Assembly (NCBI GenBank): GCA_016717005.1
Contig: JADJUF010000037.1
Coordinates: 759,011-791,010 of the forward strand
Direction: 5' to 3'
Length of the DNA: 32,000 nucleotides
Origin: Myxococcales bacterium
GTDB taxonomy: Bacteria; Myxococcota_A; Polyangia; Haliangiales; Haliangiaceae
Made by a program: the position numbers and the translations under genes. The first letter of the stretch is position 1. Each line of letters starts with the position of its first letter. This document shows, in pieces, positions 6,140-30,523 of the stretch. The notes beneath the pieces were generated by a model that ran no database searches, was not told where the DNA came from, and saw only the letters and a list, made by a program, of their open reading frames with translations.

Positions 6140-6339
6140 GCTGCTTGGACCATGATCTGCGCCGTTGGTTAGGACCGACCCGCGATCGAACCGGGCGGCG
6201 CGCATCCCGGCCCTTTGGGTAGAGCAACCCGCGTGCCGCGCGCAGGCCCGCGCGATCACGTCGTCGCCGGGATCTGCAGGTCCCGGTGCGGCTCAGCCTA
6301 TTGCTCGTCGACGGGCACGCCGGGTCGATCTAGCAGGCC

Positions 6340-6512
6340 GCACGCCGCGGTCGGAGTGTACCGGCGCGGCACCAGCCCGGGCCTCACGGCGCGGTCGGCG
6401 TGTACCGGCGCGGCGGCCCGGGCCTCACGGCGCGGTTGGCGTGCGTCGGAGTGGCACCAGCCCGGGGCTCACGGCGCGGTCGGCTTGCGCCGGAGCGGCA
6501 CCAGCCCGGGGC
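6340..6512 (-). repeat. Four tandem units (44, 41, 44, 44 bp) reproducing the last 13 codons + stop of gene 6469..7038
   Basis: Units are 6340-6383, 6384-6424, 6425-6468 and 6469-6512 (the last is the real gene end). TCA (the stop on the minus strand) starts units 2-4 and has become GCA in unit 1. Divergence increases with distance from the gene. Confidence 0.9.
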
Positions 6513-7038
6513 GCAGCGGCGCGGCGATGCCGGCCTCGAAGTCGACCCAGATGTTGGCGTCCTCGCGGCAGTCGTACTGTCGGCACTGGGCCGGGCGGTG
6601 CGCGTAGCACTGGCAACCGCCGTCGGTGCGATCCTGGTACGCGCACGAGCCGTGGTCGCCGTGCGGCAGGACGTAGGGCTGCTCGAGCCGCCACGCCAGC
6701 TTGCCCTCGACCAGATCCTGCTCCGACAGGCTGATGTCGTACGCGCAGCACCGGCCGTGGCACAGGTGCATGCGGCTGGCGCAGTCGATCTCGGCGCCCG
6801 CCATCCCGTACTTGTCGGGCGCGGACTCGAGCCGGATCTGCGGCTCGGTGATCAGCCGCGCGTGCTGGCGCAGGCGCGTGAGCATGCGCAGGTGGCCCTC
6901 GCCGAGCTGGCCCCGCGCGCGCAGGATCTCGAGCAGCGTCTCGACCACGTAGCCGAGCTCGGCGGCGGTCTGCTCGGCGCGCTCGCTGATCGCCATCGCG
7001 CGCCGCAGCTCGGCGCGCAGCTCGTCGAGCTCGTCCAT
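6469..7038 (-). CDS. YkgJ-family cysteine-cluster (Zn/Fe-binding) protein
   Basis: ORF 6469..7038-. Cys-rich core CASRMHLCHGRCCAYDISL ... GSCAYQDRTDGGCQCYAHRPAQCRQYDC, typical of the UPF0153/YkgJ family. Its start lies 12 nt after the stop of the upstream hydrolase gene. Confidence 0.8.
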   Translation of the reverse strand: MDELDELRAELRRAMAISERAEQTAAELGYVVETLLEILRARGQLGEGHLRMLTRLRQHARLITEPQIRLESAPDKYGMAGAEIDCASRMHLCHGRCCAYDISLSEQDLVEGKLAWRLEQPYVLPHGDHGSCAYQDRTDGGCQCYAHRPAQCRQYDCREDANIWVDFEAGIAAPLRPGLVPLRRKPTAP

Positions 7039-7050
7039 GGACGCGCGCGC

Positions 7051-12597: not shown

Positions 12598-13139
12598 TCA
12601 CGGCGCGCCAGCTGCGCGTCGGACGCCTGATCGCGCAGCGGGTCACGGCGGGCCCGCCCGTGACCTCGTAGCGCGAGGCGCCGTCGAGCGCGTGGCCGTC
12701 GCGGACGCCTGATCGCGCCGGTCACGGCGCGCGCGCCCCCGTGACCTCGTAGCTCGAGGTGCAATCGATCGCGTGGCCGTCGCGGACGCTCACCGCGCGG
12801 CGCGTCACGGCGCGCGCGCCCCCGTGACCTCGTAGCTCGAGGTGCAGTCGATCGCGTGGCCGTCGCGGACGCCTCACCGCGCGGCCGGTCACGGCGCGCG
12901 CGCCCCGGTGACCTCGGAGCTCGAGGTGCAATCGATCGCGTGGCCGTCGCGGACGCTCACCGCGCGGCGCGTCACGGCGCGCGCGCCCCCGTGACCTCGT
13001 AGCTCGAGGTGCAGTCGATCGCCTGGCCGTCGCGGACGCCTCACCGCGCGGCGGGTCACGGCGCCCGCGCCCCCGTGACCTCGTAGCTCGAGGTGCAGTC
13101 GATCGCCTGGCCGTCGACGGCGCCGTGGGCCCGCGCGGT
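12598..13139 (-). repeat. Seven tandem units (45, 79, 83, 84, 83, 84, 84 bp) reproducing the last ~27 codons + stop of gene 13056..13574
   Basis: Units start at the TCA at 12598, 12643, 12722, 12805, 12889, 12972 and 13056 (the last is the real gene end). Units 3+4 and 5+6 form a 167-bp higher-order repeat with 4 mismatches. The two distal units are degraded. The array fills the convergent gap to the EF-hand gene. Confidence 0.95.
13054..13080 (-). terminator. 8-bp GC-rich stem-loop with the stop codon in its 3' arm (GGTCACGG-11 nt-CCGTGACC), repeated in every 83/84-bp unit
   Basis: Arms are 13054-13061 and 13073-13080. In the mRNA the arms cover codons E-V-T-G and P-stop. The same stem (7-8 bp) recurs at about 12721, 12804, 12888 and 12971. 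There is no U-tract. Confidence 0.45.
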
Positions 13140-13574: not shown

Positions 13575-14212
13575 GGCGCGTCCGCCAGCGCGAGGGTCAG
13601 GTCGAGATCGCGCACGATCACGTCGCCGAAGTTCCAGATCGGCCCCGCGACCCGCGCGTCGACGGTCGCGACCACCGCGGGCCCGTCGGCGGTGACCTGC
13701 AGCTCGAGCCCGACGTCGCCGATGCGCTGGCTGGCGAACGGCAGCACGTCGCCGTCGTCGGCCCGCAGCGCCCAGTCGAGCACCAGCTCGACCGTGGTCG
13801 ACGTGTCGACGCCGGCGCCGTCGGCCCGCCACGCCGCGACGCCGTCGCGCTGGGTGCCCAGGCGCAGGTGCAGGTCGGTCAGGTGCAAGACGCGGGTCGT
13901 GTCGCCGAGCGCGTGCTCGAGGTCGACGTCGTCGAGATCGATCGTGAGCGCCTGGACCGCCAGGCGGTCGTCACCGACCGCGCGGACGACCACCTGGCCG
14001 CCGCGCACCCCGGGCGTCACCGGTCGCGCCACCCCGGCCTGGTCCGCGGTCAGCGCGACCGCGCCGCCGCGCAGGATCGGCAAGGCGGCGCCCGCCGCGA
14101 GCCGGCCCTCGAGCGCGCCCGCGGCGGGCCCGTCGGCCCCGTCCACGGTGCAAGCGCCGAGCGCCAGCAGGCACGCCGTGGCCATGATTGATTGAACGTT
14201 CATTCGGTTCAT
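13571..14212 (-). CDS. Hypothetical lipoprotein
   Basis: ORF 13571..14212-. N-terminus MNRMNVQSIMATACLLALGACTVD (lipobox LGAC). It has a 4-nt overlap with the next gene, so an operon is likely. Confidence 0.75.
   Translation of the reverse strand: MNRMNVQSIMATACLLALGACTVDGADGPAAGALEGRLAAGAALPILRGGAVALTADQAGVARPVTPGVRGGQVVVRAVGDDRLAVQALTIDLDDVDLEHALGDTTRVLHLTDLHLRLGTQRDGVAAWRADGAGVDTSTTVELVLDWALRADDGDVLPFASQRIGDVGLELQVTADGPAVVATVDARVAGPIWNFGDVIVRDLDLTLALADAP
14190..14205. promoter_or_regulatory. Operator-like 16-bp AT-rich palindrome, copy 1 (GATTGAACGTTCATTC)
   Basis: One of four copies of GAaTGAAC/ATTCATTC in the window. It overlaps the first codons of the lipoprotein gene that starts at 14212. 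A half-site ATTCATT also lies at 14218-14224. Confidence 0.5.
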
Positions 14213-14284
14213 GCATCATTCATTGATCACGATCCTGGCCTCAGTCAACTGTTTTGTTTGGGACTTGACATGGCGCACAGATTC

Positions 14285-14300
14285 ATCTGAACATTCATTC
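14285..14300. promoter_or_regulatory. Operator-like 16-bp palindrome, copy 2 (ATCTGAACATTCATTC)
   Basis: It ends 8 nt before the TetR start codon. A perfect TTGACA hexamer lies at 14265-14270, so the motif sits where a -10/TSS would be expected. Confidence 0.5.
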
Positions 14301-14308
14301 GGTACCAG

Positions 14309-14914
14309 ATGGCAGTCCGTGACCCCTCCGTCGCGCCCGTGGGCGACAAGTACGACGCGATCCTGGCCGCGGCCCTGCGGCTGTTCGTCGATCGCGGCTT
14401 CCACGGCACCGCCGTGCCCGAGCTGGCCCGCGCCGCCGGCGTCGCCGCCGGCACGATCTATCACTACTTCCCCGGCAAGACCGCGCTGGTGAACGTGCTG
14501 TACCGCCGCTGGAAAGAGGCGGTCGCGCGCACGATCTACGCCGCGTTCCCGGCGACCGCGACGCCGCGGGAGCAGTTCGCCGCGATCTGGGGCGCGATGG
14601 CGACGTTCGCGCACGATCAGCCCCACGCGTTCGAGTTCCTCGAGCTGCACCACCACCGCTCGTACCTCGACGCCGAGAGCCTGCGCCTCGACACCGGCCT
14701 CCAGGATTTCGGCGCCGGGTTCGTGCGCGCGGCCCAGGCCGCGGGCGTGGTCAAGGCCGGCGATCCGCACCTGCTGATGGAGCTGGTGTTCGGCGGGTTC
14801 ACGCGGATGATGCGCGCGCACTGGGAAGGCCGGCTGCCGACGCTCGACGCCGCGACGCTCGCGCTGGCCGAGCAGGCCTGCTGGGACGCGATCGCGACCC
14901 ACGCCGCGGGCTGA
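14309..14914 (+). CDS. TetR/AcrR-family transcriptional regulator
   Basis: ORF 14309..14914+. N-terminal HTH region ILAAALRLFVDRGFHGTAVPELARAAGVAAGTIYHYFPGKTALV. Confidence 0.9.
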   Translation: MAVRDPSVAPVGDKYDAILAAALRLFVDRGFHGTAVPELARAAGVAAGTIYHYFPGKTALVNVLYRRWKEAVARTIYAAFPATATPREQFAAIWGAMATFAHDQPHAFEFLELHHHRSYLDAESLRLDTGLQDFGAGFVRAAQAAGVVKAGDPHLLMELVFGGFTRMMRAHWEGRLPTLDAATLALAEQACWDAIATHAAG

Positions 14915-14971
14915 CGCGCCCGTCCCGGGCGTCGACCGGATCTGCGAACGCGTGCCTGGGGCCGTGGCCGA

Positions 14972-15445
14972 TCAGGTCCGCGCCAGCGCGTCGAGGCACA
15001 GGCGCTTGAGCTCGTCGGCGAGCGCGGCGTCGCGGCGCGCCAGCCCGAGCAACCCGTCGACCAGCGCCGGCGTCGGGATCGCGGTCAGGGCCTGGCGCAG
15101 CAGGTCGACGCCGCGCTCGGCGTCGACGCGCTGCCGCTCGAGGTGCGCCAGCGTGATCGCGACCGTGTGCTTGCACAGGTGGCGCTCGAGGCCGACCGGG
15201 CACGTGCACGCGTAGGCCAGGCCGTCGGCGCGCACCCACAGCCGCACCGCGTAGGGCGCGCGCGTCGCCTCGGTCGGGCGCACGACGCCGCGCAGCTCGC
15301 CGGGGCCGGCGATGACCTCGGCCACGCGGCCGGCGGCGAAGCAGCGCTCGCCGCGCTCGAAGGTCCGCACGCCCGCGATCGTCGCGATCGTGCCGCGGTG
15401 CAGGATGTTGGCGATGCCGGTGTCCACGCGCCGACGATCGCACAC
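14972..15445 (-). CDS. SWIM zinc-finger domain protein
   Basis: ORF 14972..15445- (GTG start; alternative GTG at 15427). CxC-x(n)-CxH motif in YACTCPVGLERHLCKHTVA. Confidence 0.8.
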   Translation of the reverse strand: MCDRRRVDTGIANILHRGTIATIAGVRTFERGERCFAAGRVAEVIAGPGELRGVVRPTEATRAPYAVRLWVRADGLAYACTCPVGLERHLCKHTVAITLAHLERQRVDAERGVDLLRQALTAIPTPALVDGLLGLARRDAALADELKRLCLDALART

Positions 15446-15458
15446 GCCGGCCGGGCGG

Positions 15459-15722
15459 TCAGCCCTCGCCGGTGCGGACGAACTTCTCGACCGTGCTCGC
15501 CCTCAGCCCTCGCCGGTGCGGACGAACTTCTCGACCGTGCTCGCCCTCAGCCCTCGCCGGTGCGGACGAACTTCTCGACCGTGCTCGCCCTCAGCCCTCG
15601 CCGGTGCGGACGAACTTCTCGACCGTGCTCGCCCTCAGCCCTCGCCGGTGCGGACGAACTTCTCGACCGTGCTCGCCCTCAGCCCTCGCCGGTGCGGACG
15701 AACTTCTCGACCGTGCTCGCCG
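15459..15722 (-). repeat. Six tandem 44-bp units (five identical plus the real gene end, 43/44) reproducing the last 13 codons + stop of gene 15679..16149
   Basis: Unit tcagccctcgccggtgcggacgaacttctcgaccgtgctcgccc starts at 15459, 15503, 15547, 15591, 15635 and 15679. I checked the copies base by base. The array ends 13 nt upstream of the SWIM gene start. Confidence 0.97.
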
Positions 15723-16149
15723 TCAGCTTGAACGCCTGGCGGACGCGGCCGCGCCGGACCTCCTCGTCGGTCGCGACGTCGGTCACCACCAGGATCGCGT
15801 GGGGATCGTCATCGTCGATCGCGACGTCGAGGTCGGCCTTGACCCGCGCGCCGGCGTCGGTCGTGAACGTCAAGGTCCTGTGCAGGGCCGCGCGCGCCGA
15901 CTGCTCGTGGCGCCGCAGCACCTCGCTCGCGGTCTTGACCAGCGTGGCGAACGCGCCGGCGTCGAGCGGCTTGGGGTTGCGCTTGTCGCGGCCCATCGTC
16001 CACGGCCCCACCAGCGCCGGCTCGTCGTCGCCCACGCGGGTCATGGCCACGGCCCAGCCGTCGTCGTCCTCGTTCTTCTGGACCTGCGCGATCCAGCCGG
16101 CCTTGCGCCAGCGGGTCGGCTCGGTGATGTCCTCGGGAGTCGTCTCCAT
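15679..16149 (-). CDS. Hypothetical acidic cytoplasmic protein
   Basis: ORF 15679..16149-. METTPEDITEPTRWRKAGWIAQVQKNEDDDGWAVAMTRVG... Balanced composition with no signal peptide. Confidence 0.75.
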   Translation of the reverse strand: METTPEDITEPTRWRKAGWIAQVQKNEDDDGWAVAMTRVGDDEPALVGPWTMGRDKRNPKPLDAGAFATLVKTASEVLRRHEQSARAALHRTLTFTTDAGARVKADLDVAIDDDDPHAILVVTDVATDEEVRRGRVRQAFKLTASTVEKFVRTGEG

Positions 16150-16219
16150 CGGGTCACCCTAGCCCGCCCCCATGACGCTCGACGCGGCGCGGCAGGTCGC
16201 ACGCGCACTTGCATAACGT

Positions 16220-16244
16220 GCGCGACCAGAACTTCTGGGCGCGC
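16220..16244. promoter_or_regulatory. 25-bp near-perfect palindrome in a divergent intergenic region (GCGCGACCAGAA-c-TTCTGGGCGCGC)
   Basis: 12-bp arms with one mismatch. It lies between the divergent starts at 16149 (-) and 16262 (+). Confidence 0.35.
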
Positions 16245-16261
16245 TCGCGCGTTGCTCGGGT

Positions 16262-17083
16262 ATGGCGATCCCCGACTCGTCCCGTCCCCTCGCGCCCGCG
16301 CACCTCGCCCCACCTGTGCGCGTCGAGCCGGCGCCGCGCGTCGGCGCGATCGCGACCGCCGCCGCGGTCTCGGTGGCGCTCGCCGCGGGCCTCGGCGGCG
16401 GGCTCATCGCCGCCAGCGCGCCCCGAGCCCACGCCGATCCGTGCGCGCTGCCCGCCGGGCTCGAGCTGACGGCGCTCGACGACGCCGATCGCAGCTGGAT
16501 CGCGCACCGCACCCTGGCGTGCATGGACGTCGCGGCCGGCCGCATCGACGCCGCCGCGTATCGAGCCACCATCGCCGAGCTCGATCACCCGACGCCGACG
16601 CCGGTCGCGACGCCGGCGGCGCCCCCGCCGCCCGCCACGGCCAAGATGGTCTGGGCCACGCGCGTGCTCGGCTTCTCGTCGCAGTGGAGCGACGACGCCT
16701 GGTCGGCCGCGCGCGTGCTCGGCGCGCCCGACGTCGAGGCGCTCGGCACCGACGCGCCCCAGGCCTGGGCGTCGCGCGGCGCCGACGATCGCGACGAGTG
16801 GATCGAGGTCGCGCTGGCGCAGCCGACCCGCCTCGCCGGACTCCGCGTCATCGAGTCGTACAACCCCGGCGCGATCACGCGGGTCGAGGTCGCGGACGCC
16901 GACGGCGCGCGTCGGATCGTCTACTGGGGCGCGGCCGCGCCGCTGGGCCCCGCCGGCCACGAGCTGGCGGTCGCGCTGGGGTGCGCCCAGGCGCCGGTCG
17001 CGAGCATCCGGGTCACCCTCGACTCGCGCGCGGTGATCGGATGGAACGAGCTCGACGCCATCGGCGGCGTCGCCTGCGAGTGA
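16262..17083 (+). CDS. Hypothetical exported or membrane-anchored protein
   Basis: ORF 16262..17083+. It has an N-terminal hydrophobic segment (GAIATAAAVSVALAAGLGGGLIAA), a Pro/Thr linker and a C-terminal ~130-aa domain (MVWATRVLGFSSQWSDDAWSAARVLG...). I cannot assign a family confidently. Confidence 0.7.
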   Translation: MAIPDSSRPLAPAHLAPPVRVEPAPRVGAIATAAAVSVALAAGLGGGLIAASAPRAHADPCALPAGLELTALDDADRSWIAHRTLACMDVAAGRIDAAAYRATIAELDHPTPTPVATPAAPPPPATAKMVWATRVLGFSSQWSDDAWSAARVLGAPDVEALGTDAPQAWASRGADDRDEWIEVALAQPTRLAGLRVIESYNPGAITRVEVADADGARRIVYWGAAAPLGPAGHELAVALGCAQAPVASIRVTLDSRAVIGWNELDAIGGVACE

Positions 17084-17164
17084 CCGCGGCGCCGCCCGCG
17101 CGTGACCGGCGCGACCTGCCCGCGACGCCTGGCGACGCGCGCGGGCTTCGGCGATGCTGCCGCC

Positions 17165-17785
17165 ATGAGCCTCGCGGTCACCGTCGGCATGCGCGCCCAG
17201 CTGACCCAGGACGCCGAGGGGCGCGCCTACTTCGAGGAGGAGCTGGCGCGGCTCGATCGCGCGCTGATCGCCGCCGGCCACGCGCCCCACGTCGAACCCG
17301 CGACGTTCGACGTCGAGGTGCTGCCGTACGCCGACCACGTCCCGTACACCTGGTTGCACCTGCTGCGCCGGGCCTACGCGCACACCCGCCCCGGCGCGGC
17401 GCCGTTCGCGCCCGCGCCGCTCGACTTCGATCCGATGGCCGATCCGCTGCTCGACCTCGAGCTGACGGTCCACCTCGATGCGCACCTGTGCTGCCACTCC
17501 GACGCCGAGGGCTACTACCTGCCGGTCGACCTGGCCGAGATCATCGACGGCGACGTCACCGGGGGGCTGATCGGCTCGTCGGTGGCGCTGGTGCGCGAGC
17601 TGCGCGCGGTCGCCCCGCTGCTCGGCATCCCGGTCACCGCGGCCGGCGTCAGCAGCGCGGTCGCCTACAGCCTGCGCGAGACCGACCAGCTCGATCCGCT
17701 GCACCGCGAGCGGATCACCTGGGGCGTGCTCTGGGCGACCGCCACCGCCAGCGTCGCCAGCGGCGCGCTGCTGGTGTTCCACTGA
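17165..17785 (+). CDS. Hypothetical protein
   Basis: ORF 17102..17785+, ATG 17165. MSLAVTVGMRAQLTQDAEGRAYFEEELARLDRALIAAGH... Balanced composition. Confidence 0.65.
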   Translation: MSLAVTVGMRAQLTQDAEGRAYFEEELARLDRALIAAGHAPHVEPATFDVEVLPYADHVPYTWLHLLRRAYAHTRPGAAPFAPAPLDFDPMADPLLDLELTVHLDAHLCCHSDAEGYYLPVDLAEIIDGDVTGGLIGSSVALVRELRAVAPLLGIPVTAAGVSSAVAYSLRETDQLDPLHRERITWGVLWATATASVASGALLVFH

Positions 17786-20328: not shown

Positions 20329-21036
20329 TCACGGGATGCACTCGCACGCGTACTCCTGGGTGCCGTTGTCGAACCAGTCGTAGAACTGTCCGCTGCTGCT
20401 GACCAGGACGTAGATCTCGCCCATGCGCGCGTTGGGCTGCCCGGGCGCGAACGGTGGATTCGCGAAGGTCTGGTTCTCGACCGTGGTCCAGATACCGTCG
20501 CGCTGCGGATCGGAGATGCCGGCCCAGTAGAACGGCGAGCTGCCGTTCGGATTCACGAAGCTGTAGACCGCGGTCGCTTCACCGGTCGTCTCGGGGATGA
20601 CGAGGTAGCCACCGTCCGACCTGCAGTCGGCCGCGGCGCTGGTCCACAGCGTCAGCGTATTGACCCGTCGATACCGTGACGTGGCCGGCGCCCCGGTGAC
20701 CGCCTGATAGCCGACACAGCGCGGCTGGGCGTCGATCGGCTGGGCGTCGATCGGCTGGGCGTCGATCGGCTGGGCGTCGATCGGGCGGGCGTCGATCGGC
20801 TGGGCGTCGATCGGCTGGGCATCGATCACCTGGGCGTCGATCACCTGGGCGTCGATCACCTGCGCGTCGATCACCTGGGCGTCAGGCGCCGCATCGACCG
20901 CCGCCGCGTCCAGGTCGGCGTCGGGCGTTGCGCCGCCGTCGCCCGGGCCGTCGATCGTCGCGGCGTCCAGGGTCCCCGTGGCGGCGCGCGGATCGAATGC
21001 GCACGAGGCCAGGACGATCAGGGCGAGGTACCGCAT
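20329..21036 (-). CDS. C-type lectin domain lipoprotein with pentapeptide-repeat linker
   Basis: ORF 20329..21036-. N-terminus MRYLALIVLASCAFD (lipobox). Linker (DAQVI)x4 then (DA[QR]PI)x7. C-terminal CTLD hallmarks: WTSAAADCRSDGGYLV, YWAGISDPQRDGIWT and YDWFDNGTQEYACE. Confidence 0.85.
   Translation of the reverse strand: MRYLALIVLASCAFDPRAATGTLDAATIDGPGDGGATPDADLDAAAVDAAPDAQVIDAQVIDAQVIDAQVIDAQPIDAQPIDARPIDAQPIDAQPIDAQPIDAQPRCVGYQAVTGAPATSRYRRVNTLTLWTSAAADCRSDGGYLVIPETTGEATAVYSFVNPNGSSPFYWAGISDPQRDGIWTTVENQTFANPPFAPGQPNARMGEIYVLVSSSGQFYDWFDNGTQEYACECIP
20723..20887 (-). repeat. Eleven in-frame 15-bp tandem repeats inside the lectin gene
   Basis: Seven ggctgggcgtcgatc-type units are followed by four acctgggcgtcgatc-type units. 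They encode DAQPI and DAQVI respectively. Confidence 0.95.
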
Positions 21037-23091: not shown

Positions 23092-24720
23092 ATGCGACGC
23101 TCGAGTCGACGCCTGCTGGTGCTGGTCGCGGCGCTGCCCGTGACGCTGGTCCTGCTGGCGTTCCTCTACATGCTCGGGATGGCGCACCTCGAGGGCAAGG
23201 AGCGCGGCTTCTGGCAGGCGCTCGAGTGGGCCGGCGAGACCGTGACCACGACCGGCTACGGCGCCGACTCGGGCTGGACTCACCCGGTGATGGTCGTGTT
23301 CACGGTCGTGACCCAGTTCGTCGGCGTGTTCATGACCTTCCTGGTCTTCCCTGTGTTCCTGATCCCGTTCTTCGAGGAGCGGTTCGAGGGACGCCTGCCG
23401 ACCAAGCTGCCGACCCGCGCCGGCACCGTGCTGGTCTACCGCTGGGGCCCGGCGGTCGCGACCTTGGTCGACGAGCTGACCCGCGAGCGGGTCCCGGTGG
23501 TGATCCTCGAGAACGACCTGGCGATCGCCCGCCGCATCCGCGATCGCGGCCACACGGTCGTCCACGGCGATCTCGATCTCGACGACGACGTCCTCGGTGA
23601 GCTGCGCGGCGTCCGCGGCATCGTCGCGAACGGCCAGGATCACCAGAACGCGGTGCTGACGCTGAGCGCGCGCCAGCGCGGCTTCAAGGGGCCGATCGTC
23701 GCGCTGGTCGAGACCCCGAGCCGGCGCGCGCCGATGATGCGCGCCGGGGCCACCGCGGTGTTCACGCCGCGCCACGCCCTCGCGGCCGCGCTCGCAGCCA
23801 AGGCCAGCGTGAAGATCAGCCCGCGCGTCACCGGCGAGCGCCGCCTGGGCAAGGCCCTCGAGATCGCCGAGGTCCGCGTGCACCGCGGCAGCGCGCTGGT
23901 CGGCACGACCCTGGCGACCGCCAACCTGCGCGGCGAGACCGGCGCCACGATCATCGGCAAGTGGATCGGCGGTGAGCTCGACGCGCCGCCGTCCCCGACC
24001 CAGCCGATGGAGGTCGGGACGATCCTGGTCGCCGCGGGCAGCCGCGACGCGATCGCGCGGCTGGGCGAGCTGGCGACGCCGGTGGCGCGCACCGGCCGGT
24101 TCTTGATCCTCGGCAACGACGAGACCGGCCGCAAGGTCGCCGAGTTCCTGCGCGACGCCGGCGAGGAGGTCACGGTCATCGACGATCAGCCCGGCGCCGG
24201 CGTCGACGTGGTCGGCGACATCCTCGATCCTGAGCTGCTCCGCCGCGCGGGCATCGCCGGGGCGCAGGCGGTGCTGCTGGTCATGGAGAGCGACAGCGAG
24301 ACCACGTTCGCCGCGGCCGTCGTCCGCGATCTGGTCAGCGACGCCGCGGTGATCGCCAGCGTCGACAACGCCGACCACGTCGCCCGGGTCCACCGCGCAG
24401 GCGCCGACTTCGTCCTGTCGATCGGGCAGGTCGCGGGTCAGCTGCTGTCGTTCCAGATCCTGGGCGAGGAGGCCGTGACCCTGCAGCCCGAGATCAAGCT
24501 GGTCAAGACCCTGGCCGGCGCCCTGGCCGGGCAACGCCTGCGCGCCGCGAAGGTGCGCGAGCGCACCGGGTGCCTGGTGATCGCGGTCGAGCGGACCGAC
24601 GAGGTCGTCGTCGACTTCCCGGGCGACTTCGTGATCGGCGCCGACGACGTCGTCTACATCAGCGGCACGCCGGCCACGATCGCCCAGTACTTCGAGACGT
24701 TCGCCGGAACCCGCCCGTGA
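23092..24720 (+). CDS. Potassium channel with two RCK (TrkA-N/TrkA-C) domains
   Basis: ORF 23092..24720+. Two TM helices flank the selectivity filter TVTTTGYGAD. Two Rossmann-like RCK-N segments follow, each with a TrkA-C-like segment. Confidence 0.9.
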   Translation: MRRSSRRLLVLVAALPVTLVLLAFLYMLGMAHLEGKERGFWQALEWAGETVTTTGYGADSGWTHPVMVVFTVVTQFVGVFMTFLVFPVFLIPFFEERFEGRLPTKLPTRAGTVLVYRWGPAVATLVDELTRERVPVVILENDLAIARRIRDRGHTVVHGDLDLDDDVLGELRGVRGIVANGQDHQNAVLTLSARQRGFKGPIVALVETPSRRAPMMRAGATAVFTPRHALAAALAAKASVKISPRVTGERRLGKALEIAEVRVHRGSALVGTTLATANLRGETGATIIGKWIGGELDAPPSPTQPMEVGTILVAAGSRDAIARLGELATPVARTGRFLILGNDETGRKVAEFLRDAGEEVTVIDDQPGAGVDVVGDILDPELLRRAGIAGAQAVLLVMESDSETTFAAAVVRDLVSDAAVIASVDNADHVARVHRAGADFVLSIGQVAGQLLSFQILGEEAVTLQPEIKLVKTLAGALAGQRLRAAKVRERTGCLVIAVERTDEVVVDFPGDFVIGADDVVYISGTPATIAQYFETFAGTRP

Positions 24721-25071
24721 TCCGCGGCCCGCGCCGCCACCGCGCCGCCACCGCGCCGGCGCGCGCGGCCCCTCGCGACCTGCGCCGGCGCCCGCCGGTG
24801 ATCGATGGCGCGCGCGCCGCCACCGCGCCGGCGCGCGCGGCCTGCGCGACCTGCGCCGGCGCTCGCCGGTGATCGATGGCGCGCGCGCCGCCACCGCGCC
24901 GGCGCGCGCGGCCTGCGCGACCTGCGCCGGCGCCCGCCGGTGATCGATGGCGCGCGCGCCGCCACCGCGCCGGCGCGCGCGGCCTGCGCGACCTGCGCCG
25001 GCGCCCGCCGGTGATCGATGGCGCGCGCGCCGCCACCGCGCCGGCGCGCGCGGCCTGCGCGACCTGCGCCG
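24707..25071 (+). repeat. Five tandem units (81, 71, 71, 71, ~60 bp) each containing a copy of the K+ channel gene's last ~4 codons + TGA + a strong GC hairpin
   Basis: TGATC starts units at 24718 (the real stop), 24799, 24870, 24941 and 25012. Units 3 and 4 are identical and unit 2 differs by 1 nt. Unit 1 carries an extra 11-bp duplication (gccaccgcgcc). Confidence 0.95.
24809..24839 (+). terminator. 11-bp all-G:C stem with 9-nt loop (CGCGCGCGCCG-ccaccgcgc-CGGCGCGCGCG), repeated in units 2-5 of the array
   Basis: Arms are 24809-24819 and 24829-24839. The same hairpin recurs at +71, +142 and +213 nt. There is no U-tract. Confidence 0.5.
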
Positions 25072-25198: not shown

Positions 25199-26107
25199 AT
25201 GGCGATGACCACCATGCTCGTGCCGTGCGTCTGGCTCGACGATCAAGCCGAGGCGGCCGCGGCGCTCTACACCGAGCTCTTCCCGGGCGGCCGGACGACC
25301 GCGGTGGCGCGCTACCCCGAGGCCACCGACAACCCCAGCGGCCGGCCGCGCGGCAGCGTGCTCACCATCGAGGTCGAGCTCGCCGGGCAGCGCTGCACCT
25401 TGCTCAACGGCGGCCCGATGTTCACGCTCAACCCGAGCCTCTCGCTGTTCGTGCAGCTCGACGACAGCACAGCTGCCCGTCGACTGTTCGGTCGGCTCGC
25501 CGAGGGAGGCGAGGTGCGGATGCCGCTCGACCAGTACCCGTGGAGCCCGTGCTACGGCTGGGTCCAGGATCGGTTCGGCGTGTCGTGGCAGGTGATCACC
25601 GGCCGGCGCGCGCCCGCCGGCGACACGATCGTCCCGTGCCTGATGTTCGCGGGCGCCCAGCACGGTCGGGCCGAGGAGGCGCTGCGCCGGTACGCCGCGA
25701 TCTTCCCCGACGGCCGCGTCGACAGCCTCGAGCCGTACGGGCCCGACGAGGGCCCCGCCGGCACGCTCAAGCACGGGCGCTGCACGCTCGCCGGGCACGA
25801 GCTGGTGGCGATGGACAGCCACCTCGCCCACGACGTCGCGTTCAACGAGGCGCTGTCGCTGCAGGTGATGTGCGCCGATCAGGCCGAGGTCGATCGCTGC
25901 TGGGACGCGCTGGTCGACGGCGGCACGCCTGGCCCGTGCGGCTGGTTGAAGGATCGGTTCGGCGTGTCGTGGCAGGTCGTGCCGAGCGCGATCGCCGCGT
26001 GGATGGCCGGCCCCGACACCGCCGCGCGCGACCGCGCGTTCGCGGCGATGCTGACGATGGGCAAGCTCGACGTCGCCGCGCTCGAGCGCGCCTTCACCGG
26101 CGCGTGA
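25199..26107 (+). CDS. VOC-superfamily protein, tandem PhnB / 3-demethylubiquinone-9 3-methyltransferase-like domains
   Basis: ORF 25199..26107+. MLVPCVWLDDQAEAAAALYTELFPGG and two copies of DRFGVSWQV are typical of the PF06983-type fold. Confidence 0.85.
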   Translation: MAMTTMLVPCVWLDDQAEAAAALYTELFPGGRTTAVARYPEATDNPSGRPRGSVLTIEVELAGQRCTLLNGGPMFTLNPSLSLFVQLDDSTAARRLFGRLAEGGEVRMPLDQYPWSPCYGWVQDRFGVSWQVITGRRAPAGDTIVPCLMFAGAQHGRAEEALRRYAAIFPDGRVDSLEPYGPDEGPAGTLKHGRCTLAGHELVAMDSHLAHDVAFNEALSLQVMCADQAEVDRCWDALVDGGTPGPCGWLKDRFGVSWQVVPSAIAAWMAGPDTAARDRAFAAMLTMGKLDVAALERAFTGA

Positions 26108-27447: not shown

Positions 27448-27465
27448 GCCGCGCGCGCGGCGGCG

Positions 27466-27559
27466 TCAGGCCGCGTCGGCGTCGGTGATCGGCGACGGCG
27501 CGCGGGCCGGGGTCAGGCCGCGTCGTCGTCGGTGATCAGCGCGACGATGATCGCGTCGC
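27466..27559 (-). repeat. 47-bp duplication of the 3' end + stop of gene 27513..28109 (units 27466-27512 and 27513-27559)
   Basis: The first 29 nt after each TCA are 27/29 identical (tcaggccgcgtcgNcgtcggtgatcNgcg) and the remainder has decayed. The copy would encode ...PITDADAA-stop versus the real ...LITDDDAA-stop. Confidence 0.85.
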
Positions 27560-28109
27560 CCGAGTCCGGGTAGGCGTAGCCGAGGTGGAGCGCGGGGCCC
27601 CGGTTGACCGCGGCGAACGCCCCGGCCTCGACCAGGTGCAGGATCGCGCGGGCGATCGCGAACCGGACGTGCCCCTCGAGCCAACCGTCCTCGCCGCCCT
27701 GGTTGAGCGCCTCGTACTGGGGCGAGCGCAGGAACGGATCGTAGCTGATCGTGAACTCATGGACGGCCTCGTCGCACGACGTGTACTCGCCGTAGCGTGG
27801 GTCGAACGTGCGGGCCTCGGTCCGGGCCGCGACGGTCTTGGCGGTCTGCCAGCTGTCGGGCCGGCCCGCGACCTCGGGGATCAGCGCGCGCATCTGCGCG
27901 TTGCGCGCCTTGGCGCCCGCCTGGTTGCGCGCGGCGGTGTCGAGGTGGACCTCGTACCAGCCCTTGTACGGATCGGCCCACAGCACGATCGCCGCCAGCG
28001 GCTCGTCGCCGTGGCCCAGGGCGATCACGTCGATCGCGGCGCGCAGCTCGGTCACGAGCTCGGCCTCGAGCGCCTGCCAGTCAGGGGGAGCGAGCGGGTC
28101 GGCGGTCAT
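27513..28109 (-). CDS. Hypothetical cytoplasmic protein (DUF4303-like, by recollection only)
   Basis: ORF 27513..28109-. MTADPLAPPDWQALEAELVTELRAAIDVIALGHGDEPLAAIVLWADPYKGWYEVHLDTAARN... Confidence 0.7.
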   Translation of the reverse strand: MTADPLAPPDWQALEAELVTELRAAIDVIALGHGDEPLAAIVLWADPYKGWYEVHLDTAARNQAGAKARNAQMRALIPEVAGRPDSWQTAKTVAARTEARTFDPRYGEYTSCDEAVHEFTISYDPFLRSPQYEALNQGGEDGWLEGHVRFAIARAILHLVEAGAFAAVNRGPALHLGYAYPDSGDAIIVALITDDDAA

Positions 28110-28133
28110 CGGCCGAGCCTACACGGCGTCGGC

Positions 28134-29495: not shown

Positions 29496-30101
29496 TCAGC
29501 GGACGATCTCGAGCGCAATCGCGTTCGAGCGGTGGGCGCCGATCCGCCACTCGACCGTGTGCGGACCGGGCGTCGCGAAGGTGTAGCTGGTGACCTCGAA
29601 GTTGACGTCGGCGTCGGGGCCGGGCAGCACCGCCCCGTCGTAGACGCCCACCCACGGATAGTCCGGCACCTCCGGCGCGGTCGTGCGGAGCGCGCCGTCG
29701 ACGTACTCGCCGTAGGCCGGCTTGGGCCCCATCACGAACGACTCGTGGCCGGCCGCGACCTCGACGACGTGGACCACCCGCACCGGCTCGCCGACGGCGT
29801 AGCGCGTGCGCGCGGTCAAGATCGTCATCGTCAGGCCGTCGACCGTCGGGCCGTGCGGCGCGTCGGCGTAGCCCTGGGCCACGGCCTGATCCTCGGCCGG
29901 CGCCTCGACGATCGCGTCGCCCTGGCGCGCGTACAGCTCGCGGATCTTCAGCGCCGCGCCGCTCACCGCCGGCGTCGCCTGGGTCGGCGCCGCGCCGCTC
30001 GCCGCCGGCGTCGCCTGGTCTGGAGCCGCGGTCCCGGCGCACGCGCCACCGAGGCCGACGAGGATCACCAGCGGGAGCGCGCGAGACGTGACGGCGGGCA
30101 T
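29496..30101 (-). CDS. Hypothetical lipoprotein
   Basis: Inside ORF 29496..30287-. ATG 30101 gives MPAVTSRALPLVILVGLGGACAG. Just after the signal peptide there is an in-frame ~33-bp duplication (APDQATPAASGA / APTQATPAVSGA). Confidence 0.75.
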   Translation of the reverse strand: MPAVTSRALPLVILVGLGGACAGTAAPDQATPAASGAAPTQATPAVSGAALKIRELYARQGDAIVEAPAEDQAVAQGYADAPHGPTVDGLTMTILTARTRYAVGEPVRVVHVVEVAAGHESFVMGPKPAYGEYVDGALRTTAPEVPDYPWVGVYDGAVLPGPDADVNFEVTSYTFATPGPHTVEWRIGAHRSNAIALEIVR

Positions 30102-30132
30102 GTGGCGCTCAAGATAGCAACGCCGGCCCGGC

Positions 30133-30146
30133 GATCGAGCTCGATC
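30133..30146. promoter_or_regulatory. Perfect 14-bp palindrome GATCGAGCTCGATC in a divergent intergenic region
   Basis: It lies between the divergent starts at 30101 (-) and 30272 (+). Confidence 0.3.
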
Positions 30147-30271
30147 TGCGCCGCGCGGTGACCGCCGCGTGCGCCGCGCCTGGCGGCCTCGGCCGGCTGC
30201 GACCGCGCACCGCTGGCCCGCCGCTGGCGCCCGGGGTGTCGCGCGTGGCAGGATCGAGCCTGGAGGCTCGG

Positions 30272-30523
30272 ATGCCGCTTCGTACATACTTCATCCAGGT
30301 CGGCGACCAGGTGTTCCTCGAGGAAGGCGGCGAGGAGATCGGCGCCGTCCGCATGGTCGAGAAGGACCACATCGTGATCTACATCGAGGGCGCCGGGGAC
30401 TTCACGCTGACGGGCCCCGAGATCGCCGCGGTCCACGACGGCAAGGTCCGGCTCGCGCCGACCAAGCTGCCGCCCGTGCTGCTCGGCGCCGCCCAGGCCG
30501 CGCACGCGCAAGAGTCCGACTGA
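30272..30523 (+). CDS. Small hypothetical protein (83 aa)
   Basis: Inside ORF 30158..30523+. ATG 30272 has GGAGG at 30262-30266. MPLRTYFIQVGDQVFLEEGGEEIGAVRMVEKDHIVIYIEGAGDF... Confidence 0.6.
   Translation: MPLRTYFIQVGDQVFLEEGGEEIGAVRMVEKDHIVIYIEGAGDFTLTGPEIAAVHDGKVRLAPTKLPPVLLGAAQAAHAQESD

Follow-up and report, generated by a model that had tools for sequence, protein, structure and literature searches.

A 44-bp minisatellite built from copies of a gene end in an uncultured Myxococcota lineage, with a probable origin by microhomology-mediated tandem duplication

Introduction

Several kinds of tandem repeats that lie beside bacterial genes have been described. Simple-sequence contingency loci have a slippage-prone repeat next to a gene, and their repeats of 1–9 nt cause phase variation. 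Microhomology-mediated tandem duplication (MTD), characterised in S. pombe and found in E. coli as well, duplicates a short segment head to tail between two arms of 5–8 bp; the published units are 55–92 bp, duplication is much more likely with long GC-rich arms, and the perfect product is itself highly unstable (PMC8639346). In the high-GC bacterium M. tuberculosis, VNTRs consist of near-identical units of tens of bp, and one of them, ETR-F/VNTR3239, is placed in the gap between the co-oriented genes rnc and fpg, upstream of the distal gene, where strain polymorphism is documented and repeat length shows a modest correlation with the fpg1 mRNA level (PMC2734929). MIRUs are tandem units of 40–100 bp in intergenic regions of operons and form a dispersed family of 41 loci (PMC2734929).

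The array described here, six head-to-tail copies of 44 bp between two co-oriented genes of a Myxococcales bacterium, resembles the MTD products in its short unit and in its short GC-rich arms, but it has six copies instead of two, carries an extra substitution at the junction, and is fixed at a silent site of a wild genome, whereas the MTDs in that study were subclonal alleles that disrupt genes. In unit size, copy identity and position it is similar to ETR-F, but it is known from the sequence of one assembly, and its unit is demonstrably the last 44 bp of the upstream gene. The difference from contingency loci is larger, since the 44-bp unit is neither in a reading frame nor a promoter spacer and has no on/off logic. 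The array is thus a further example of an already known kind, the young locus-specific bacterial minisatellite.

Results

The array is made of six abutting copies of the end of gene A

The whole stretch of DNA analysed (32 kb, hereafter the window) has about 75% G+C, and third-position GC (GC3) was used to tell real genes. The features at the array are as follows.

14972..15445, minus strand: gene B, a SWIM-like CxCx8CxH protein of 157 aa from GTG 15445, or 151 aa from GTG 15427
15446..15458 (or 15428..15458 with the second GTG as the gene B start), minus strand: ancestral spacer, from comparison with the orthologue
15458..15463, minus strand: distal microhomology arm GCTGAC, read from the sequence, holding the last TGA of the array; the ancestral spacer resumes downstream
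15459..15678, minus strand: five extra, mutually identical copies (220 bp) between the gene A stop and the ancestral spacer, each with a TGA
15502, 15546, 15590, 15634 and 15678: the five junction bases, all C on the plus strand, derived
15679..15722, minus strand: founding 44-bp copy, the real end of gene A, with TGA at 15681-15679; 15722 is G on the plus strand (codon ACG, Thr143)
15722..15727, minus strand: gene-internal microhomology arm GCTGAC, within codons K-L-T, 44 bp from the stop-codon arm
15679..16149, minus strand: gene A, a conserved hypothetical protein of 156 aa (ORF and translation; GC3 0.97)

Direct comparison placed identical copies of the 44-mer TCAGCCCTCGCCGGTGCGGACGAACTTCTCGACCGTGCTCGCCC at 15459, 15503, 15547, 15591 and 15635, while the copy at 15679 had a single mismatch to the other five at its last base (15722, G instead of C). 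TRF reported the same array at 15459-15727 with a period of 44, 6.1 copies, 99% matches and a score of 531. These two results confirmed a preliminary description of the locus, which had counted six 44-bp copies, five of them perfect and the sixth differing at its last base. The 44-mers on both sides of the array had 26–32 mismatches to the unit, and the 31-nt core of the unit occurred six times in the window compared with no occurrence in 100 dinucleotide-preserving shuffles; with up to three mismatches allowed, the core was not found outside the array within the 32-kb window. Read on the minus strand, the unit encodes ASTVEKFVRTGEG followed by a stop (TGA). The reading frame rotates copy by copy, so TGA was found in all three frames across the array, and readthrough of the real TGA would add 43 residues; the translation, the stops in every frame and the length of the extension all agreed with what had been claimed before.

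The six abutting copies agree with the structural definition of a bacterial minisatellite or VNTR, in which a unit of 10–100 bp is repeated head to tail and no unique sequence intervenes. A CRISPR array was rejected because the copies abut directly, the period equals the unit length and there are no spacers. A MIRU was rejected as well, as the unit is unique to its locus (in the 32-kb window and the metagenome contigs), the coding (minus) strand of the unit has no ATG, GTG or TTG, and stops are present in all frames; the MIRU-type ORF, with a start and a stop that overlap those of the flanking genes, is absent from the 44-bp unit.

The founding unit consists of the last 13 codons of gene A, its stop codon and two further bases. 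The gene A product was a 100% match to NCBI MBK9034862.1 (IPL61_26965, Myxococcales bacterium MAG), and it belongs to a very large and highly conserved family, for which the protein collection gave over 7,900 scored hits at 65–85% identity across Myxococcota; relatives were also found in Burkholderiales by the genome scan. No match was found in Pfam, NCBIfam or PDB. The family has the invariant motifs WTMGRDK.NPKPLD and D.DDPHA and the consensus end ...FKLTAxTVQRFxRTGE(G/A), and all 22 aligned members end in the same column, so the copy at 15679 can be taken as the genuine gene end, as the preliminary description had supposed. Because the first copy met by the ribosome carries this intact end and the stop codon, protein A is unchanged by the array.

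Relatives keep a single copy flanked by microhomology

The closest relatives with usable context were four short wastewater-metagenome contigs from independent assemblies (L083-L086). In all four the gene order is the same, with a gene A that is 85% identical and an orthologue of gene B following 31 nt later; in L083 this orthologue (L083:1200-1655) is 88% identical to gene B. This orthologous locus has only one copy of the gene end. The L083 sequence is ...cacggcTGAccgggtcgggccggtgtgcgatcgtcggtgcGTGgacacc, and that of the window beyond the last unit is ...gagggcTGAccgcccggccggcgtgtgcgatcgtcggcgcGTGgacacc. The two agree in the first bases of the spacer (TGACCG) and are conserved over the 18 nt that precede the second GTG of gene B, with diverged bases in between. 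In the 16 nearest loci of the genome collection that were read downstream of the stop, no array was found at the end of gene A, and the downstream neighbour of gene A is conserved only in the closest relatives. The single copy at 85% identity and the array-free ends of these 16 loci support the recent expansion that had been proposed from the perfect copies.

Under MTD, the unduplicated state should contain identical arms spaced by one unit length. This was found in L083, where the octamer GCTGACCG occurs twice, exactly 44 bp apart and at the positions that bound the unit here; one occurrence lies within codons K-L-T, and the other overlaps the stop codon. In the window, GCTGAC is still present at 15727-15722 and 15463-15458, which are the boundaries of the repeat units. 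MTD also predicts a junction made of one microhomology copy alone, and here the observation was different by one base: all five internal junctions read GCTGAG, not GCTGAC, while the gene reads GCTGAC-GG and the distal flank reads GCTGAC-CG. A plus-strand G at the junction position is implied by both flanks (15458 and 15722) and by the Thr codon of the orthologue, and the family conserves this Thr (ACN). The junction base is compatible with a later mutation, and clean slippage between the GCTGAC arms would need this one extra mutational step. Since the derived base is common to all five junctions and missing from both flanks, the point mutation should have come before the expansion.

Based on these data, we think it quite probable that the array is a young locus-specific minisatellite which arose by microhomology-mediated tandem duplication and then grew by slipped-strand expansion. 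In the proposed ancestor, the end of gene A would have read ...AAG CTG ACN GCG ...(44 bp)... GGC TGA CCG, so that a 6–8 nt GCTGAC[CG] occurred twice at a distance of 44 bp, with one occurrence in the coding sequence and the other overlapping the stop codon. Slippage of a nascent strand from one arm to the other would have duplicated the intervening 44 bp, the single junction would then have gained a C-to-G change (minus strand), and the long perfect repeat may have grown through further slippage or unequal exchange to give the five extra copies. Slippage as the mechanism is deduced from the sequence. The ongoing homogenisation that had been offered as a second explanation of the perfect identity is not needed, because stepwise expansion of a unit with an already mutated junction is sufficient.

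The junction substitution also changes the base after the gene A stop, from the ancestral TGA-C (as in L083) to TGA-G (15678-15681). UGA-C is a weak, leaky termination context in E. coli. The change from UGA-C to UGA-G at gene A is noted here only as a speculation about possible relevance.

Gene B and its immediate upstream sequence are intact

The preliminary description had named gene B a SWIM zinc-finger gene. The CxCx8CxH signature CTCPVGLERHLCKH is visible in its translation, but its match to Pfam SWIM (PF04434) scored 16.1 bits (E 0.0084), which is below the gathering cut-off of 19.6. The distance of 13 nt between the array and gene B given in the same place holds for the longest ORF (GTG 15445) but becomes 31 nt for the second GTG (15427), and it is at this second GTG that the four independent orthologue assemblies put the gene B start. 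No recognisable Shine-Dalgarno sequence was found before either candidate GTG. The 18 nt between the two in-frame candidates (window 15425-15445) are identical to the orthologue at 17 of 18 positions, and the single change before the second GTG would be non-synonymous if translated.

The distance from the gene A stop to the gene B start is now 233 or 251 nt, compared with 13 or 31 nt before the expansion. Gene B itself is intact, with the ancestral spacer and the gene following the last copy. Because the units copy what already lay there, the 57 nt proximal to GTG 15445 (the 13-nt spacer and one unit) are the same as the context before duplication. The earlier claim that expansion alters the 5′ context of this gene is therefore not right for these 57 nt and applies only further upstream. 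Expansion does lengthen the transcript, and it puts gene B farther from the last codon that is translated in the upstream gene.

The array contains no signal beyond the gene end

The preliminary description had seen no convincing hairpin in this unit, and in our analysis no inverted repeat was found inside the units either; the RNA fold of the array was no better than that of shuffles (z = −0.92). A consensus scan of the array found no sigma-70-type promoter and no intrinsic terminator, no Rfam match at E <= 1 was obtained within 14000-17500, and when the array was read on the plus strand and searched against proteins for ORFs across similar arrays, there was no hit. The array carries nothing beyond gene A's own end.

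A terminator or REP-like hairpin repeat was rejected on these grounds, with no stem-loop per unit and no terminator-like site, and a riboswitch, sRNA or known structured RNA was rejected for lack of an Rfam match and of a better-than-shuffle fold. Each unit has two GGG runs on the coding strand, but a long-loop G-quadruplex formed from them is unlikely, as the central loops would be 34 nt. Since the RNA of the array is rich in G (19 G compared with 12 C per unit), Rho-dependent polarity was also considered unlikely.

The array is most probably a passenger without an evolved function, although its neutrality is deduced from the sequence. Both proteins are intact, so a period that is not divisible by three could survive here and not inside a gene, and the event would have been invisible to purifying selection on either neighbour. 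Some side effects can be predicted from the sequence: the untranslated gap in the probable A-B transcript would be 220 nt longer, any termination-reinitiation coupling between A and B would be lost, and the copy number should change at a high rate. Translational coupling is most efficient at short distances and drops with distance (PMC12548453), and gene B has no recognisable Shine-Dalgarno sequence, so reduced translation of gene B is a plausible side effect of the longer gap.

The same observations could be read in a stronger way, with the array as a regulatory spacer of variable copy number (a "contingency" minisatellite) that is kept because unit number tunes or switches expression of the SWIM-like gene, e.g. 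through altered mRNA stability or a loss of translational coupling to gene A. The array does fill nearly the whole gap between two co-oriented genes that were 13–31 nt apart in the ancestor, gene B may have relied on coupling that weakens with distance (PMC12548453), and the length effect of ETR-F/VNTR3239 on the fpg1 mRNA level is a precedent (PMC2734929) that makes some regulatory effect on gene B plausible by analogy. However, the array is missing from the closest relatives and so gives no sign of maintenance, its unit is the gene's own end with no motif, palindrome, promoter or structure, the 57 nt next to gene B were left unaltered, and the several unrelated arrays of like kind in the window point to mutational bias over selection at this locus. 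We therefore regard a maintained regulatory spacer as unlikely.

Copy number and authenticity of the array

A perfect repeat of 264 bp is expected to vary in copy number, and instability of the array is plausible from its sequence. The copy number and copy identity were read from a single metagenome-assembled genome. A search of protein records and metagenome contigs found no second assembly of this species; the cluster of the gene A protein consists of a single sequence from a 1.26-Mb MAG contig, and neither a junction-specific 32-mer nor a 33-mer of the unit had a match in the metagenome contig collection. A sister record, whose locus tag apparently belongs to the same series, is on a contig named in the Canu style ("tig"). 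We take the source to be a long-read MAG, presumably of the series from a Danish activated-sludge study in which Nanopore MAGs were polished with short reads. For this reason, perfect identity among copies carries less weight here than in a finished isolate genome, and polishing, if used, could have erased small differences between copies.

It might be argued, then, that the array itself, its copy number or its perfect identity is an artefact of assembly or polishing: short-read polishing is able to homogenise repeat copies, the gene is on record from the one contig, the contig name of the sister record fits a long-read assembler, and no independent assembly searched contains the unit or the junction. 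But the junction base differs from both flanks, which indicates a real mutational history, and because this derived base is shared by all five junctions, mere re-copying of the gene end by the assembler is unlikely. The older arrays in the window have the same architecture with 9–17% divergence between copies and cannot be products of assembly, and the range of copy identity in the window (83–99%) likewise makes an artefact unlikely. L003 and L011, apparently from the same project and pipeline, have one and zero such arrays, respectively, in 20 kb each, and long reads easily span an array of 264 bp. An artefact was thus judged improbable.

Other arrays in the window

The window contains six arrays with a period of 44–85 bp not divisible by three (the 44-bp array and five others), all at gene boundaries; TRF lists some of them at one and some at two times the basic unit (e.g. 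84/167 bp). Further repeats noted in the window are as follows.

6336-6524, minus-strand gene: 44 bp, 4.3 copies, 83% identity; holds the stop of 6469..7050(-)
12620-13124, minus-strand gene: 84-bp unit, 6.1 copies, 91% identity; the stop (TCA at 13056, plus strand) lies in the stem of the rightmost copy
24741-25071, plus-strand genes: 71-bp unit, 4.6 copies, 98% identity; between a gene ending at 24720(+) and a gene starting near 25199(+)
27451-27541, minus-strand gene: 47 bp, 1.9 copies, 88% identity; holds the stop of 27513..28118(-)
20722-20883, minus strand: in-frame repeat of 15 bp, 10.8 copies, inside ORF 20329..21036(-); would encode a 5-aa repeat
29951-30030, minus strand: in-frame repeat of 36 bp, 2.2 copies, inside ORF 29496..30287(-); would encode a 12-aa repeat

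In four of the six arrays the stop of a GC3-supported gene is certainly inside the array, namely 6469..7050(-), 13056..(-), 15679..16149(-) and 27513..28118(-), and five of the six contain or align to the stop codon of a gene. Each 84-bp unit of the array at 12620-13124 has a perfect hairpin with a 7-bp stem, GTCACGG(N11)CCGTGAC, which makes it an older array of a gene end plus a terminator-like hairpin; the minus-strand gene that stops at 13056 was identified by its third-position GC. For the array at 24741-25071, the 71-bp unit can be aligned with the 3′ end (including TGA) of the gene that stops at 24720; the real copy has diverged, and this is the second young array in the window. Both arrays with a period divisible by three are inside ORFs. 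If the length of a duplication is not a multiple of three, an internal one breaks the gene and one that spans the stop is silent, so selection would favour gene ends, and the observed placement is as predicted by mutation plus a selection filter. The copy identity of the arrays at gene boundaries ranges from 83% to 99%, with 83–91% for the older ones, and this wide spread means that the process has long been active in the lineage.

The density of arrays with a period of at least 20 bp not divisible by three was 1.9 per 10 kb in the window, while the same class was represented by four arrays in 1.25 Mb of high-GC relatives (L001-L080), or 0.03 per 10 kb; this roughly 60-fold contrast is inflated by the way the window was ascertained and by collapse of repeats in short-read assemblies, but it is still large. 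Simple slippage by itself leaves it unexplained, and the tandem-duplication rate may be elevated specifically in this lineage.

The density and the frequent stop codons could also mean that the 44-bp array came from a directed, lineage-specific amplification of gene 3′ ends and not from random slippage filtered by selection, with replication stalling at transcription or translation termination sites, or an enzyme-driven template switch, as candidate processes. But five of six at the 3′ as opposed to the 5′ boundary does not depart significantly from 50:50 (one-sided binomial, about 0.11), duplications across the 3′ end are the most silent class, so the filter alone predicts such a bias, and the inflated comparison with relatives applies here too. 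Plain microhomology explains the 44-bp unit, and the boundaries of the other arrays are in no constant relation to the stop codon. A directed origin was therefore considered very improbable. A recoding device, in which readthrough or frameshift at the repeated TGAs would give protein A alternative C-terminal extensions, could be dismissed, for although readthrough would add 43 residues and stops come up in each frame in turn, the RNA fold gave no stimulatory structure, the extension is arginine-rich and out of frame, the plus-strand reading (the only one searched) has no protein homologue, all 22 aligned family members end at one position and the array is missing from relatives.

Discussion

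Young minisatellites are a known kind of locus, and the value of this one is that sequence reveals the single-copy ancestor, the microhomology that primed the duplication, the junction mutation as a dated intermediate, and the expanded product, which makes it a textbook-clean example of the birth of a bacterial minisatellite. The array also illustrates why duplications of this sort persist in a gene-dense genome as "copies of a gene end". A-B co-transcription, the decoupling of the two genes and the instability of the array are predictions at this stage. In practice, the array is a probable VNTR marker for this uncultured Myxococcota lineage, and it calls for caution in annotation and assembly, since an array of this kind will be collapsed in short-read assemblies.

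The array density is the more interesting lead. We hold it possible, though doubtful, that this lineage has an unusually active, possibly targeted tandem amplification of 40–85-bp segments that span gene 3′ ends. If this were true, about 5 of about 30 genes in 32 kb would be affected, with array identities of 83–100% and the 44-bp array as the freshest product, and the lineage would be a natural system for minisatellite birth and for the control of microhomology-mediated duplication in bacteria. If the density holds genome-wide, it points to an elevated tandem-duplication rate in this lineage.
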